A DNA stretch of 64,000 bases from Octopus sinensis (GCF_006345805.1 NC_042999.1:84134001-84198000), one strand, 5' to 3'. Shown: positions 6,652-50,917, counted from the first letter of the stretch. Notes: generated from the sequence alone by a model not told the origin. Numbers and translations are program-made.

Positions 6652-6778
6652 ATCTTACAGCTGTTTCAGCCATGCAGATATGGGTGCCTCATTATGCTCA
6701 TATTAGCCATGTGTGATAGGTTAATATGAAGTTATAAATAAGACACTTACAAAAATATCCCAAGGCCTCTTCAGAGAT
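6652..6778 (-). ncRNA. Type I hammerhead ribozyme motif
   Basis: Minus strand: ATCT-CTGAAGA-GGCC-(92 nt)-GGCT-GAAA-C-AGCT-G-TA-AGAT. Stems I and II pair, palindromic loop III, GUA cleavage triplet. Confidence 0.75.
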
Positions 6779-7209
6779 TATGAAGAACAAACTAAATTAA
6801 ATATGAAAATCAAAGGAGGTACACCCATACAATAGTGGGTACATACCCTTAATATATAATATGTAATATAATATACATATGAGTGCATATATCCATACTC
6901 CTATATATATATATATACATATATATAATAATAATAATAATATACAGCAATATACATGCATATGTTCTATATTCAAGGTTACATTTAGTCATAACAATAT
7001 ATTAGAATATTACAATATAGAAGCATACACATATCTATATTCAAATGCAGATATACAAAGTCAATAATTCATTATATTAAGTTACAAAATGCCATTAATA
7101 TTAATATCATTACTATTACCATTGCCACTATTGCTACTAATATCATTATTATTCAGTAGTTTTATTTTTATAGCGTTCTTTTAACTTCACTACTGAGCGC
7201 AGCTCTGTG

Positions 7210-7272
7210 ATTATTATTATTATTATTATTATTATTATTATTATTATTATTATTATTATTATTATTATTATT
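7210..7272. repeat. (ATT)n microsatellite
   Basis: Direct reading. Confidence 0.95.
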
Positions 7273-8006
7273 AATGGCATTAATACCAGCAAAACAATAT
7301 ATGCATCACGCGGTTAGCAACATAATAGCAAAACAACAACAACAATAATACAGTACCATGCAAAGCATTAAGATCGGCAGATACATATAAAAAGAAAGAT
7401 GGAAAACATTGATTTACATAGTAGAAAATTCCACAGATGTACAAGCGTTTACCCGGACTGATATATATGCAAAGTATTAAGTTCAGAGATCGTTAGATAT
7501 CGAACGGCCAATGCGATTGACCTGCACATTTGAATTTCAATTGTCTTCGTTACGGTTGGTTTGTTAAAAATACTCACATACGTATACACGAATATGTGCG
7601 CTTACACATATATACATGGATAAATCACAATACAGGAAATACTAGCTTACATACACATAGTTTATATTTACATTTGTATTTATTTATATTCACTTATACA
7701 TACTGTACTTATTGTATCTTATTACTCTTTCATGTACATCGTTTTGTTCTATATTCTTTTGTTTGACCTTAATGTTCATATGTAGTGGTTTAATAAATTA
7801 TATGATTGGGTATTATCTGGTAGTTGATCATTGATTAAGATGTGTTTCTCCATTTTCTTATTTTGTATATATATATATATATATATATATATATATATAT
7901 ATATATAGTTAATCCAAACCTGAAAGCCCAAAAAGAACATAACAACGCGAGGACGTGGAACGAATATAGTATTATTGGACGTTCAGGAAAGAAAGAATGA
8001 AGGAGG

Positions 8007-8041
8007 GTTTAACGTTTCGAGCGGAGCTCTTCGTCGGAAAC
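8007..8041 (-). ncRNA. Minimal hammerhead-like motif (variant core) within a ~220 bp (TA)n-flanked insert at 7908-8125
   Basis: Minus strand: GTTT-CCGACGA-A-GAGC-TCC-GCTC-GAAA-CG-TT-AAAC. The core has C in place of U4; stem III is the loopless palindrome ACGT. Confidence 0.5.
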
Positions 8042-9811
8042 ATAAGAGAAGGAAAGATCCAGAGAAGGGAAGACAGAGGGAAAAAAATCGCCAACGTTAC
8101 ACACGCGGTCACATTTTGAATTAATACATATATATATGAATGTCTGTGTGTGTGTGTGTGTATGGGTGTGTGCGTGTGTATGCGTGTGTGTGCGTGTGTG
8201 TGCGCGTGTGTGCGCGTGCGAGTTACCAAAGCTACATTCGCAATGTGCTGTCTCTTGGAATTTCGATTTTGCTAACACTTTGTAACGAAGTGTGATTTTA
8301 ATTATTGGTAGCAGTCTAAATTAAAATTCCCTCCACAATTTGTCAAATACAAAATCTAAATGATAAAAATAATAAATATTATAATTAAAGAGTTTCAAGC
8401 ACAAACATTTATAGTTACACACTGAAAATTCTAAAAGTATTGCAAACGGTCTTTTATATATGAAAGAAACAGCATCAACACTAACAAAATCAATAATTTA
8501 ACTGCAGCTGCTTTCTTTTTTTTTTTTTTTCTTCTTCTTTATCGTAAAACTGTTCGTGAATCATATCTAGAAGAAGGAAAAAGCGATATATCGCAATTAT
8601 GAATGTCTTATTGGCTATGGTTGTTATCAGAGGAAGGGCAAGATAGAGAAAAACACATCTGTTTCTTCTAATAAGATGTAGGATGCCCACGTGCCTTGGA
8701 AAATGTTAATGGTGAATTAAGAAGACCCAGTTTTCAACCATAGTGGGGGACAGAAAGTTCAAAGCGAAAGATTATGGGAGTTATGAGATTGCTTGTTCCA
8801 GGTAATTTTTCACACCGCGATGATTTTTTTTTTGTGTGTGTTTACTATATTTTTAACCTTGTATATGCTGAGATTATTCCAGTTTATTGTTCATGTACAT
8901 ACCTGTATATTTTCTAAACATTTTAAAAGTAATATGTTGTTTTTCCCTGTGGCCTGTTGTGTTGTCTGTAAAGAGTGTGGTGCTTTGGCATAAATGCTGG
9001 AGAGCCAAAATGCTATACAGCACCTTCTGGTCGAGGCCATGTTTAATTTTCCTCCATTCAGAGACGAAAATCTAGAGTACCAATAGAATCTATTAACTAC
9101 TTCTTTTAGAATATTCGGGACATGTTTCTGTTTTAGAAACAATTAGTTACGTGTGAGTAGATTTCTATGTACATTCCTGTGTAGATATGTGTGTTTGCGT
9201 GCTTATGTGTATGCATGTATTCATATGTATGAGTGTGTGCGCGCGTGCGTATGTGTTCACGTCTTCCGTCTAGAATACACAGAGTTAAACATGGTGTGGA
9301 TTTGATATCTCGTTAGTTAGCTGTTTGTTGCACATATTTCTAGAATGTCTAAAACTGGATGTGAGGAGAAGTGATGTTAGGAAGCAAAATAAAAAAGGCA
9401 AAATTAGAACCAAAATTTGTATAGTCTCTTTCTGTGTGTATTTTTCGCGCACACAAATACTTGCATAGGTAGGTAAATATAGAATGGATACAGATGCACA
9501 AGAGTTAAAATAATTTTCGAGGACTAAATTTTCTTCCTGCATAAGAAGGACAGGGACAATAAAAACCCGATTGTTTCCAGTATCTCCCGTCGTAAACGCT
9601 GTAAATTTCAAACAGAACCGATAAATAATTTTGCCCTTAGGAAGAAATTCTTAATGCAGATTTATGAGAAATGTCCTTTTATGTCAACGTCCATGTGCAA
9701 TATAGCCAGTAGTAGTATTAGTAATAATAATCTCTTCTCTTATAGGCACTGGACCTGAAGTTTTGAGGGGGTGGGCTACTTGATTACATCGACCCCAAAC
9801 AATAATGATAA

Positions 9812-10312
9812 TAATGCTCTGATGCAGTACCTGGCAATGGGTCACATGACTTTTGATCTTAAATGATTGGAAGTGTTATCATCTACACGTTTAATTTGGG
9901 GTAAAGATGGGCTACTGTAAAATATTCTGCTGAATACAACAGATTTGCTTGTCAGTTGCTTACCTTAAGAAGTTCGGCATGTTCCTGACAAAATGTGCAT
10001 CTCTGATCACAAGAAGTAGTGGGAGAGCATCATAGTTAAGTGTCGAGGGGAATTCTTTAAGGTTTGAATAATTTACCCCTTGTAACATAAATGTTTCGAG
10101 CATGATCCCTAAGCAAACTTTATTCAGGGGTCTTTTGAGTAGGAAGGGCTCCTCAAACTGAAGAAAGTTCTAACTGGACCCACCTGCAAGGTCATGTACT
10201 GTTTATATTGCTATGATATGACTATATCGCGCACATTTGGTTGTGATGCATGTACCTGGTGTATCCTTACCAGACGGGTAGTCATGATTTGGGTTTCATA
10301 TATTTGTTACCC
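9812..10312. repeat. Dispersed repeat associated with (TAA)n, copy 1
   Basis: Homologous to 28762-29145 (TGATGCAGTACC...GATTGGAAGTGTTATCAT...GTGCATCTCTGATCAC...TATTCAGGG). Class not determined. Confidence 0.75.
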
Positions 10313-10317
10313 AATAT

Positions 10318-49162: not shown

Positions 49163-49465
49163 TAAATATAAATTAAATTAGAAATAAAACCACTATTAGG
49201 CAAATCAAACAGTGAAAAACATAAACCAAAACATAAAGATAAAAATAATTAATATAATATACAAAATATATGAAATTTTAAATTTAAATTATTTAAATTT
49301 AAAATTTTTTATTTATATTTATAAATTTTTATACTTTTTTTATTTTTTAAATTTTATATATTTTGTATATTATATTAATTATTTTTCATTTTTATGTTTT
49401 GGTTTATGATTTTCACTGTTTGATTTGCCTAATAGTGGTTTTATCTCTAATTTAATTTATATTTA
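49163..49465. repeat. Inverted repeat, ~116 bp arms, ~70 bp AT-rich spacer
   Basis: 49163-49278 is the reverse complement of 49349-49465 (AAAACCACTATTAGGCAAATCAAACAGTGAAAA / TTTTCACTGTTTGATTTGCCTAATAGTGGTTTT). Confidence 0.9.
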
Positions 49466-50074
49466 TACTGTGAAATTAGATTTAATCCTAAATCTAATTT
49501 TTCCCTGTAAGTTTGGATTTACTCCCTAATATTATTATTATATAATATGTTTATATATATATTTGCATGAGAGTAACATCCAGAACATACGTTTTATGTA
49601 TACAACTGAGAATATCTTTGCGATTTTTTCGAAACCCTCAAATATATGAGTGTAATGCAATTCAACGGAGGGTATGGAAATGGCTGAAATGTTGAGTCTT
49701 TTTAGTAGCAAATTATTTATCACCGTTACTAATCTTACTGTTATTTCTTCACTGAAAAGTAATTGCACTGCGTGGTCGCAAGAGATGATCAACATGATTG
49801 TTGTACCTGATAGATTAGTAACCAAATATTTTTCTAAACGCTCTTCACTGATTCGAAAATGGTGCGATACATTAAAAACATTGTCCTAGATAAGAAATGT
49901 CTATGAAAAGTACTTTTAACAAGGTGAGCTGTGGGGTCGATGTAAGCGACTTACCTTCCCCCTGAAAGTGCTGCCCTCGCACCAAAATTTGAAACTGATA
50001 TTGGCTTTAACAGTTACGGTAGTCTCAGGATCCACTATGTATAAGAACATCTAAAGATATGGATATAATTTTAG

Positions 50075-50240
50075 TAGGAGTGGCTGTGTGGTAAGTAGCT
50101 TGCTTACGAACCACATGGTTCCCGGGGTTCAGTCCTACTGCGTGGCATCTTGGGCAAGTATCTTCTACTATATCCTCGGGCTGACCAATGCCTTGTGAGT
50201 GGATTTGATAGACAGAAACTGAAAGAAGCCCGTCGTATAT
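50075..50240 (+). mobile_element. Group B SINE, 5' half
   Basis: AGGAGTGGCTGTGTGGTAAGTAGCTTGCTTAC...AAGAAGCCCGTCGTATATA; matches the reverse complement of 19015-19184. Confidence 0.9.
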
Positions 50241-50440
50241 ATATGTATATTTATATATATATATATATATATAATATAATATAATAATAAATATAAGAGA
50301 GTGGTCACTATATTGCTCACTCTAGCACCAGTTAATCCAAAAGGTTTCAACCACGAAAATACATGTTTCCCATGAAAGCCAGTACGACTGTTAGCTCACA
50401 CGGACAGGGCAAATAGAAAAATAACAAAATACAGATTATT

Positions 50441-50517
50441 TTGGGACAATTGTTTCGCTATTAATGAATTAAATGTAATATTACTTACAAAAAATCCATT
50501 TGTAGCTCGTCAGCCAA
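50441..50517 (-). ncRNA. Type I hammerhead ribozyme, inverted copy
   Basis: Reverse complement of 50841-50917. Confidence 0.8.
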
Positions 50518-50840
50518 GACTATCTGGATGAAATCCACTCAATCACACGCCAGATTTTACCATAACGATAAATACGCGTGTGGTTCAATTGATTACATCC
50601 GACACTTGGTGTTGAATAAATATACTATTAAATTAGTATCTAATTCTCTCACCCTTATTAATTAATTATAATTATGCTGCATTTATTTCTAAATGCTGTA
50701 TTTGTTTTCCGTGAAAGTTTGGCGCGCTGTTGGTTGGGGCATTTGAATTATAACGTCGGATGTAATCAATTGAACCACACGCGTATTTATCGTTATGGTA
50801 AAATCTGGCGTGTGATTGAGTGGATTTCATCCAGATAGTC

Positions 50841-50917
50841 TTGGCTGACGAGCTACAAATGGATTTTTTGTAAGTAATATTACATTTAATTCATTAATAG
50901 CGAAACAATTGTCCCAA
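50841..50917 (+). ncRNA. Type I hammerhead ribozyme, unit 1
   Basis: TTGG-CTGACGA-GCTA-(42 nt)-TAGC-GAAA-C-AATT-G-TC-CCAA. GUC triplet with predicted cleavage after 50913; stem I extendable by CAGAT/ATCTG. Confidence 0.85.

Follow-up and report, generated by a model that had tools for sequence, protein, structure and literature searches.

Hammerhead motifs in the window

The window, a stretch of 64,000 nucleotides from Octopus sinensis (GCF_006345805.1 NC_042999.1:84134001-84198000), contains hammerhead motifs in three groups of repeats, two assigned to the Hydra clade of Penelope-like elements and one a non-coding tandem array. The features are as follows.

6265..7660, minus strand: 5'-truncated Hydra-clade element carrying HH1, 3' UTR and pseudo-LTR only, with a (TA)n end; ends approximate
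6652..6778, minus strand: HH1, type I hammerhead; stem I 4 bp, stem II 4 bp (G-U at its base), loop 92 nt
7660..7865, plus strand: inverted piece of the 3' end of the HH1 element, abutting its 5' truncation point, (TA)n beyond; ends approximate
30795..30957, plus strand: another piece of an HH2-family 3' end, shorter, with a (TA)n end; end approximate
31133..31384, plus strand: 3'-terminal piece (pseudo-LTR) of a second Hydra-clade family, with HH2
31232..31337, plus strand: HH2, type I hammerhead; stem I 5 bp, stem II 6 bp, loop 65 nt
50270..51746, plus strand: HH3 array, non-coding, retrozyme-like, (TA)n on both sides
50441..50517, minus strand: identical copy of HH3 in the inverted 5' arm
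50841..50917, plus strand: HH3, type I hammerhead; stem I 4 bp, stem II 4 bp, loop 42 nt
51375..51450 (approximate), plus strand: third copy of HH3, lacking 1 nt of the 3' strand of stem I

HH1, HH2 and HH3 had been claimed in a preliminary description, and our descriptor scan recovered all three with the same coordinates and loop sizes, together with the inverted HH3 copy, which that description had missed. The core CUGANGA ... GAAAC-N4-GUH, whose GAAAC-N4-GUH part it had named, is common to all three. The window motifs carry C3 U4 G5 A6 N7 G8 A9, G12 A13 A14, A15.1-U16.1 and H17, the type I consensus applied here being that of the methods of PMC3088659, and three helices surround the core with an open stem I, an arrangement that covariation supports. 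The core boxes lie 100 nt apart in HH1, 77 nt in HH2 and 50 nt in HH3, where the insert is predicted to fold as a long helix II (z -3.8). Cuts are predicted 3' of 6656, 31332 and 50913, respectively, and stem III is palindromic in HH1 (ACAGCUGU) and HH3 (ACAAUUGU). The families had also been said to lack any similarity outside the core. This mostly stands, except that early in loop II HH1 and HH3 have about 15 nt in common, GGAT(A)TTTTTGTAAGT; the stretch is probably coincidental, since it is absent from the sister families of HH1.

Host elements of the motifs

Where the preliminary description took the families to be unrelated, HH1, HH2 and the commonest long family are all assigned to the Hydra clade, and the families are therefore probably related. 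The assignment uses sequence motifs, pairwise identity (33-47%) and a likeness, judged by eye, to Hydra-1_Obim. DKT and CxCX5C are Hydra-clade motifs (PMC8557442, section 11). DKT replaces DKG in L121, L330, L328 and the HH1 element L406; the CxCX5C linker is found in L406, the HH2 element L054 and L121, and is degenerate in L330; the RWK region reads RMRWK in L121, RIRWL in L330 and RIRWA in L328, the HH1 and HH2 copies used lacking this region. A single ORF, with reverse transcriptase (RT) followed by a GIY-YIG endonuclease at the C-terminus, is intact in L330 and L121 and broken, though colinear, in the HH1 and HH2 families. Pfam gave a weak GIY-YIG match, below its cut-off (E 0.004), and no match on two full ORFs.

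Longer HH1 copies carry the C-terminus of a Hydra GIY-YIG endonuclease 2.1-2.2 kb upstream at three loci, with RT for two. A first look gave 1,069 candidate HH1 copies; the 40 scored were 95-100% identical, and the descriptor was intact in 23 of 30 fetched. The HH2 family is older, with copies 82-87% identical and the descriptor intact in 7 of 30. At locus L033 the end of an endonuclease, a 3' UTR and HH2 are joined, a link made by DNA homology; tblastn found no protein match there because the locus holds only the last endonuclease bases. At L054/L128, HH2 is upstream of RT and endonuclease sequences from its own family, and L141 holds a short-armed HH2 homologue (15-nt spacer) with near-identical flanks. 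The hammerhead of the commonest long family follows the Hydra endonuclease by about 605 nt in 11 of 12 loci, and in L330 a copy lies on either side of an intact 899-aa Hydra ORF. Hammerheads of these Hydra-clade elements sit in the pseudo-LTR, at both ends in L330, but with spacers of 55-100 nt rather than the canonical short loop. The links between family and Hydra element that we kept are L378/L406, L381/L407, L383, L033, L054/L128, L330 and L068; L003/L129 (HH1), L251 (HH3) and L250/L328 were rejected, having proved to be independent insertions nested within a shared (TA)n tract.

Insertion at (TA)n with an inverted, 5'-truncated partner recurs in all three window families, the inverted piece being present in 19/30 HH1, 15/30 HH2 and 22/30 HH3 loci. 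The piece at 7660..7865 was recognised by eye. An inverted piece at the 5' truncation, with (TA)n, is typical of Penelope-like insertions according to the Fig. 2 legend of PMC8557442.

The HH3 array consists of an inverted arm (50270-50603) followed by 534-bp head-to-tail units at 50603-51136 and 51137-~51669 and a partial third. It contains no ORF of at least 120 aa, and GC is about 0.34 in its 2-kb bin. Direct tandem copies were found in 28 of 30 fetched loci, several of which overlap one array, and the descriptor was intact in 28 of 30 copies. The joint between unit ends that a monomeric circular RNA would carry occurs in all four runs consulted, including a DNA-sized one, and genomic tandems predict the same joint. 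At L068 an HH3 array directly adjoins, in one fusion, a truncated and inverted element from an active Hydra family. This one chimeric locus and the common insertion features link HH3 to Hydra elements; the unit is likely copied by Penelope-like machinery.

Abundance and detection

With a loose descriptor the window gave 4 matches, against means of 0.003-0.02 (maximum 1) in 3 x 300 dinucleotide shuffles; a strict descriptor gave 4 against none in 200 block shuffles. Genome-wide patterns were sequence only, leaving the stems unconstrained, with reversed patterns as controls. Spacers of 38-68 nt gave 11,038 matches (91 in controls) and spacers of 69-102 nt gave 5,410 (132), so that the abundant, multi-family long-insert class that had been proposed is borne out by 16,448 long-spacer matches against 223; short-spacer motifs numbered 1,267 against 47. 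That the motifs are chance matches in AT-rich, repetitive DNA has a negligible probability. Nothing was found in its favour, and only a few singleton clusters lack stems; the 200 window shuffles and a further 25 shuffles of 800 kb yielded no strict match and the reversed controls fell 27- to 120-fold below the real counts, which refutes chance for the class.

The copy number was nevertheless overestimated: three motifs per 64 kb would extrapolate to ~127,000, whereas the pattern counts correspond to about one match per 165 kb, some 8-fold fewer. Since an even 800-kb sample likewise held 3 matches of the type first described, the window is about 10 times denser than average.

The suspicion that default models may miss these motifs proved well founded. 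None of HH1-HH3 reaches the Rfam RF00163 gathering score of 34 bits: HH3 scores 27.5 bits (E 4e-5) and HH2 23.3 bits (E 0.0011) against Hammerhead_1, and HH1 has no hammerhead match at E<=10. Rfam on the whole window showed no hammerhead among the 150 of 220 weak matches listed, and on 10 loci, a short-armed family among them, it gave no hammerhead match.

Stem covariation and the predicted extension of helix II

Clustering showed that the unconstrained stems covary across 15 unselected clusters (77-78% paired, against 32-37% when permuted). Watson-Crick pairing was 0.77 in stem I (0.35 permuted), 0.78 at positions 2-4 of stem II (0.32) and 0.77 in the loop III palindrome (0.37), and none of 10,000 permutations reached the observed value in any of the three. 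Both stems had at least 3 bp in only 14 of 23 cluster representatives.

The term loop II needs revision. The insert is predicted to form a long, imperfect and interrupted continuation of helix II, with compensatory changes: two-sided changes occur at 5 of 24 predicted extended-helix pairs in the HH1 superfamily (9 sequences) and at 6 of 11 in a second superfamily. Of 15 clusters, only 7 had inserts that folded better than their shuffles (z < -1.64). The predicted hammerhead fold lies above the monomer MFE by 9.5 kcal/mol in HH1, 3.7 in HH2, 5.6 in HH3 and 1.8 in the L330 motif; pairs in stems I and II have probabilities under 0.2 in the window copies of HH1 and HH2 and 0.87-1.0 in HH3.

An A before stem II together with U1.7, the helix I-II contact of PMC11875169, occurs in 4 of 23 clusters, including HH3, and is absent in HH1 and HH2. 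The association was not significant (Fisher p 0.24, 14 well-stemmed clusters), and a conserved A(-5)/U1.7 contact was dropped as a candidate. In engineered hammerheads, a stem II lengthened by extra internal loops can be inhibitory (PMC11875169).

Proposed mechanism and alternative readings

Read from the DNA, these motifs have the core, three stems, covariation across families, a pseudo-LTR position and (TA)n insertion with inverted 5' pieces. The reading we favour, and hold to be probable, is that HH1 and HH2 in Hydra-clade terminal repeats, and HH3 in a likely hitch-hiker, have an extended helix II on a core that is likely intact and would cut the precursor RNA. An ancestral short-armed Hydra hammerhead may have grown at the tip of helix II in the host lineage; many inserts are AT-rich, and their length appears to vary by local duplication. 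Selection during transposition would have maintained pairing of the helix base and of much of the insert, because an unpaired insert would misfold the core. Stem III, 2 bp with a palindromic loop, is presumably too weak for a monomer; therefore, as in published relatives, a tandem transcript would bring two copies together through pairing of their 8-nt palindromes, and cleavage would take place in the dimer. Such cleavage would be slow, probably aided by the element's own RT-endonuclease protein, and would release unit-length, possibly circularisable templates. Penelope-like hammerheads cleave as dimers with low activity (PMC4209133), one such hammerhead needed its protein to cleave (PMC11167929), and 8 of 9 tested retrozyme dimers did not cleave (bioRxiv 10.64898/2026.07.22.740005). 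Most likely the distal hairpin is cargo that the element tolerates and not a new functional module.

The opposite view of the hairpin would make it a docking site for the RT-endonuclease, or an editing-sensitive switch in which A-to-I changes loosen the helix and tune cleavage. Long forms outnumber short ones by about 13:1 among motifs with the same stem III, in at least 23 clusters, and the compensatory changes in the extension and the protein-dependent cleavage of a Penelope-like hammerhead (PMC11167929) are in keeping with a function. In run X1 a loose end over the HH3 helix II has 7 differences from the window in 29 nt, all A>G, and A>G makes up 9 of 14 listed substitution places there, against 2 of 11 in X15, as compared by eye in contigs of runs guessed to be RNA. 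Contigs from such runs suggest that A-to-I hyper-editing of helix II is likely; however, T>C clusters imply that the opposite strand is altered too, and the 334-nt inverted arms would explain this without helix II. The extensions also lack a common sequence motif, range from ~38 to 100 nt, and have short-armed relatives. We therefore regard a functional module as unlikely, and with it the idea of helix II as a 40-100-nt double-stranded platform that controls self-cleavage when bound by the element protein or edited by host ADAR, which is a doubtful prospect on the same scale. If true, the genome would contain over 16,000 copies of a ribozyme gated naturally by editing or by a protein.

Might the motifs instead be inactive or near-inactive relics, whose insert destroys the loop I-loop II contact and whose core is carried passively? 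HH1 and HH2 monomers are predicted to fold poorly, the A and U1.7 pair is as sparse as described above (4/23 clusters), and a Penelope-like element transposed in vitro without needing cleavage (PMC11167929). But passive carriage would not yield the covariation of core-flanking stems and loop III palindrome across diverged families, and young families with intact ORFs have motifs in both terminal repeats; we consider relics improbable. Finally, GTAAGT occurs within helix II in HH1 and HH3 and in several further families (71 exact matches against 2 in controls). It raised a model in which a pseudo-LTR intron has its 5' splice site in the insert, and splicing (mRNA) and self-cleavage (template) would then exclude each other; Penelope and Chlamys are known to have introns that overlap the pseudo-LTR (PMC4209133, PMC8557442). 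The 71 to 2 ratio does not test a donor, because the control reverses the whole pattern, and a rough chance estimate from the 11,038 long motifs gives about the same number. Of 55 unselected motifs, 12 have a donor-like word, and 7 of these come from one family's tandem arrays; HH2 and the intact L330 element have no such word, and the sister families of HH1 have lost it. No joint at 50870 appears in contigs of three runs, guessed to be RNA; being contigs only, these cannot prove absence and do not give RNA start, end or level. None of the runs listed as containing the sequence is recorded as RNA. The model was downgraded as unsupported, and we judge it very improbable.

Relation to known systems

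The preliminary description considered the class lineage-wide. For the element clade this fails: 78 loci of Hydra relatives in metagenome contigs include 36 with the motif, all short-armed (10-25 nt), some with the same 8-nt palindromes, and viral contigs gave no relative. Because these relatives are short-armed, the long form looks specific to the host lineage, probably octopus, for which the claim may hold. The Hydra-clade hammerheads listed by Craig et al. (2021; PMC8557442 File S2) have 3-10 nt in loop 2, against octopus spacers of 38-100 nt, and the octopus elements have 3' UTRs of 0.6-2.2 kb and an intact unit of 3.6 kb, where PMC8557442 gives "generally <3 kb".

Minimal Penelope-like hammerheads (Cervera and de la Peña, 2014; PMC4209133) resemble ours in a short helix I, an enlarged helix II and palindromic positions 15.2-16.2; in both, cleavage is predicted to occur in dimers, most copies are solo and truncated, and there are many families per genome. 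In theirs, helix II has 6-8 bp and stem III is often missing, whereas the octopus helix II is predicted at ~15-35 bp and stem III has 2 bp and 4 nt. HH3, like metazoan non-LTR retrozymes (Cervera and de la Peña, 2020, PMC7229834; Li et al., bioRxiv 10.64898/2026.07.22.740005), is non-coding, low in GC and tandem, has a single type I hammerhead in each unit, and probably depends on Penelope-like machinery to move. It differs in its 534-bp unit (theirs is typically ~300 bp, 51-972 reported), its extended helix II and its retained inverted 5' arm of a Penelope-like insertion.

The nearest precedents found are two remarks in PMC8557442: Selaginella PLE-X1 hammerheads with a loop 2 of 29-35 nt, flagged as deviating from the canonical structure, and the Naiad "HHR_half_core" cases, 8 elements, one of them from Octopus, whose core halves are separated by 35-50 nt. 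Both are isolated remarks on other clades, the Naiads without stems or covariation, whereas the octopus long form dominates its motif type across the genome. The discontinuous mammalian Clec2 hammerhead is, according to a review (PMC6765202), likewise a natural hammerhead with a long insertion, but a single-copy 3' UTR motif with several hundred nt inserted and not a retroelement repeat. We found no long-helix-II hammerhead described for Hydra or cephalopod elements, although supplements of PMC4209133, PMC3088659 and the bioRxiv paper may hold examples. The core search of PMC8557442 allowed 7-17-nt spacers; relaxed long-loop descriptors were used by Arkhipova et al. (2017), according to a citing paper.

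Significance

The long-armed form is a structural variant of a known retroelement ribozyme, and is likely still able to cut element RNA. It is the dominant hammerhead form of its type in a 2.7-Gb animal genome and yet invisible to routine annotation, because surveys used short core spacers and the Rfam cut-off rejects the motifs. Should the extension be only tolerated cargo, the result would be a useful annotation fix and a structural curiosity. The genome also offers natural matched constructs, the young, intact L330 (long arm) and L121 (short arm) and the homologous pair of HH2 and L141, which bear on the role of Penelope-like hammerheads and on their need for a helix I-II contact or a protein.

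Hammerhead Motifs in the Window

The three type I hammerheads of the preliminary description were all reproduced in the window, with the positions and loop sizes reported there. Together with two further copies of HH3 and other features, they are:

6652-6778 (-): HH1
31232-31337 (+): HH2
50841-50917 (+): HH3
50441-50517 (-): extra copy of HH3, identical to it
about 51375-51450 (+): third copy of HH3, with a 1-nt deletion
8007-8041 (-): short minimal hammerhead with the variant core CCGACGA, directly beyond the HH1 insertion
19185-19287 (-): U6 snRNA gene or copy (100.6 bits)
20461-20905 (-) and 33880-34919 (+): decayed remnants of Penelope-like coding sequence

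The short hammerhead has a bulged A ahead of a 4-bp stem II, and GAAA-CG-UU; it is probably part of another Penelope-like terminal repeat. The decayed fragments comprise a Hydra-type RT piece, plus an RT and endonuclease piece resembling another clade.

A corrected long-loop ("reader-type") descriptor, built after the originally described motif, gave 4 matches in the window versus 0 in 200 block shuffles. The suspicion that default models may miss such hammerheads was justified. Against Rfam Hammerhead_1, HH3 (27.5 bits, E 4e-5, with a 38-nt insertion aligned in loop II) and HH2 (23.3 bits, E 0.0011) both score under the cut-off of 34, and the Rfam search returned no match to this model for HH1.

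Genome-Wide Abundance

HH1, HH2, and HH3 are each a repeat family, with 1,069, 558, and 921 first-look candidates in the genome, respectively (40 scored each). In the whole-genome patterns, the core letters, GAAAC-N4-GTH, and the initial base pair of stem II were the sole constraints; the reversed pattern served as control. With spacers (the nucleotides between two core boxes) of 7-36 nt there were 1,267 matches (control, 47), with 38-68 nt 11,038 (control, 91; this pattern leaves out HH3's family), and with 69-102 nt 5,410 (control, 132). By these pattern counts (11,038 plus 5,410 versus 1,267), long forms, those with an enlarged helix II, are about 13-fold more frequent than short ones, as counted within the GAAAC-N4-GTH stem III type alone. 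Sampling the genome evenly at 80 x 10 kb gave 3 reader-type long motifs, with none in 25 shuffles; long motifs with any stem III numbered 6 versus 0.72 expected. Three motifs in 64 kb had been taken to imply a very large copy number; the class is indeed abundant, but the window's rate is not typical, as long-form density is about 1 per 165 kb genome-wide (pattern counts) and that of the window is about 10 times the genome average.

Among the short-class matches listed, a ~350-bp tandem family with a canonical short hammerhead is dominant (L337-L350); its locus L337 likewise scores under the Rfam cut-off.

Structure and Covariation

We grouped 88 motifs (85 from fetched loci and three from the window) into 23 clusters, and the covariation set consisted of the 15 clusters originating solely from two stem-blind searches. 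Partners were permuted between clusters 10,000 times as a null. Stem I showed Watson-Crick pairing of 0.77 (0.35 permuted) and stem II positions 2-4 of 0.78 (0.32 permuted), and pairing of the loop III palindrome was 0.77 (0.37 permuted), each with 0/10,000 permutations, counts that are not strict probabilities because the clusters are related. The complementarity originally described thus holds up, with stems I and II and the loop III palindrome covarying across unselected clusters; a smaller, earlier subset of motifs gave the same pairing picture.

Fold prediction has the long insert doubling back on itself to form an interrupted helix. The HH3 insert fold departs from shuffles with z -3.8, and in consensus folds 5 of 24 pairs (9 HH1-like sequences) and 6 of 11 pairs (9 sequences of a second superfamily) had changes on both sides. 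Two results count against this reading: inserts folded better than shuffles in only 7 of 15 clusters of an earlier subset, and, as monomers, the window's HH1 and HH2 copies did not favor the hammerhead fold in fold prediction. The helix II extension varies freely in sequence and length but retains its pairing, for which reason we judge it to be tolerated growth.

Association With Hydra Elements

The Hydra clade of Penelope-like retrotransposons is defined by RWK, DKT, and CxCX5C motifs (Craig et al., PMC8557442). A protein carrier was traced for a minority of the long families, among them the commonest one, HH1, and HH2. For the commonest long family among the matches listed, 11 of 12 loci place it ~605 nt 3' of a Hydra endonuclease. 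One complete element of that family (L330) has an 899-aa frame and the 55-nt-spacer hammerhead in both terminal repeats. For HH1, a stepwise walk found the endonuclease end 2.1-2.2 kb upstream in 3 loci, and RT was reached in both loci taken further upstream. In L033, HH2 is located downstream of the 3' UTR and endonuclease end belonging to a different Hydra family, and in L054/L128 it is upstream of that family's RT and endonuclease. The families had been called unrelated, which probably does not stand, as HH1 and HH2 loci both trace to Hydra coding sequence. By-eye comparison indicates that the Hydra-clade ORF here resembles Hydra-1_Obim. Several apparent family-ORF links were dropped as nested insertions.

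Starting from an endonuclease fragment adjoining one HH3 array, we reached an active family whose 717-aa frames carry the RWK, DKT, and CxCX5C motifs; the hammerhead of this family appears short by reading of the sequence. The hammerhead of the short-armed Hydra element L121 (L121:6286-6360, -) and its family has the core variant CCGAAGA and a spacer of ~32 nt (by eye). The L121 family is very young, with ~55 of 150 endonuclease copies 100% identical among the matches listed.

Hydra ORFs with long-armed hammerheads (L330:2738-5434, L406) have long low-complexity inserts ahead of the endonuclease, and their 3' UTRs are long as well; both features suggest that sequence has expanded generally in these families. 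In the families of HH1, HH3, L283, L288, and L302, two preferred 3' ends each were also observed, ~130-180 nt apart, a gap far exceeding the 30-40-bp "tail" that Penelope-like elements have been described as having.

Preferred 3' ends, in nt past the cut site
HH1: 213 and 391
HH3: 155 and 286
L283: 62 and 218
L288: 54 and 212
L302: 50 and 209

The HH3 Tandem Unit and Possible Processing

The HH3 unit is a 534-bp tandem repeat without an ORF. It has an inverted 5' arm, is flanked by (TA)n, and is present in sequencing runs bearing three organism labels. At L068, an HH3 array directly abuts, with no spacer, a copy of the active Hydra family that is inverted and truncated; this join suggests that HH3 may be mobilized in trans.

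Contigs from three runs, guessed to be RNA, together cover 30 of 30 bins of the HH3 unit, and no splice-type joint at GTAAGT was seen in them. They contain A>G and T>C clusters: in one run (X1), A>G occurs at 9 of 14 listed substitution places, and one loose contig end shows 7 A>G differences across a 29-nt stretch of helix II, as compared by eye with the window and not with same-individual DNA. These clusters fit A-to-I hyper-editing of both HH3 strands, but the long inverted arms alone would suffice to explain them.

In another long-arm family, with a ~525-nt unit, ~60-nt inverted repeats surround the hammerhead (L250:1189-1250 and 1640-1703) and would yield a rod-like RNA. In ~600-bp tandem arrays (L371-L375), helix II tip length differs between arrays via AT-rich duplications.

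Beyond the motif, covariation, and context demonstrated here, relatives suggest how these hammerheads may act. By analogy with relatives (PMC4209133, PMC6765202), cleavage would take place in a dimer formed via the palindromic stem III, and its intrinsic activity would be low; the computed self-duplexes of the palindromes are 8 bp long, at -6.4 to -11.1 kcal/mol. The element's protein may assist, given reported protein help for hammerhead cleavage (PMC11167929). One cut per tandem unit would release monomers, as in retrozymes (PMC7229834, PMC7761336), for which one study reports cleavage in 1 of 9 dimers (bioRxiv 10.64898/2026.07.22.740005).

Origin and Range of the Long Arm

No account of a long-helix-II hammerhead in Hydra or cephalopod elements was found in the literature searched, some relevant papers and supplements being beyond reach. 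The nearest precedents are Selaginella PLE-X1 loops of 29-35 nt and "half-core" notes, 35-50 nt, for eight Naiads (both PMC8557442). A term search of the main text of a 2026 Octopus vulgaris repeat annotation (PMC13282606) did not find "hammerhead," "ribozyme," or "Hydra."

Published Hydra hammerheads have loops of 3-10 nt (PMC8557442 supplement). Of 173 confirmed stretches in a metagenome scan, the best 80 provided 78 Hydra-like loci; a hammerhead was detected in 36 of these, with spacers all 10-25 nt, and the remaining 42 could conceal distant long motifs because the contigs are short. Given these spacers and the published loops, the long arm appears to be specific to the host lineage. Interconversion between the long and the short form is shown by L141, a short-armed relative of HH2 whose 15-nt-spacer motif shares HH2's flanks and stem II. 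The long arm is real and abundant, and constitutes a new structural variant of the putative hammerhead ribozyme of Hydra-clade Penelope-like elements.
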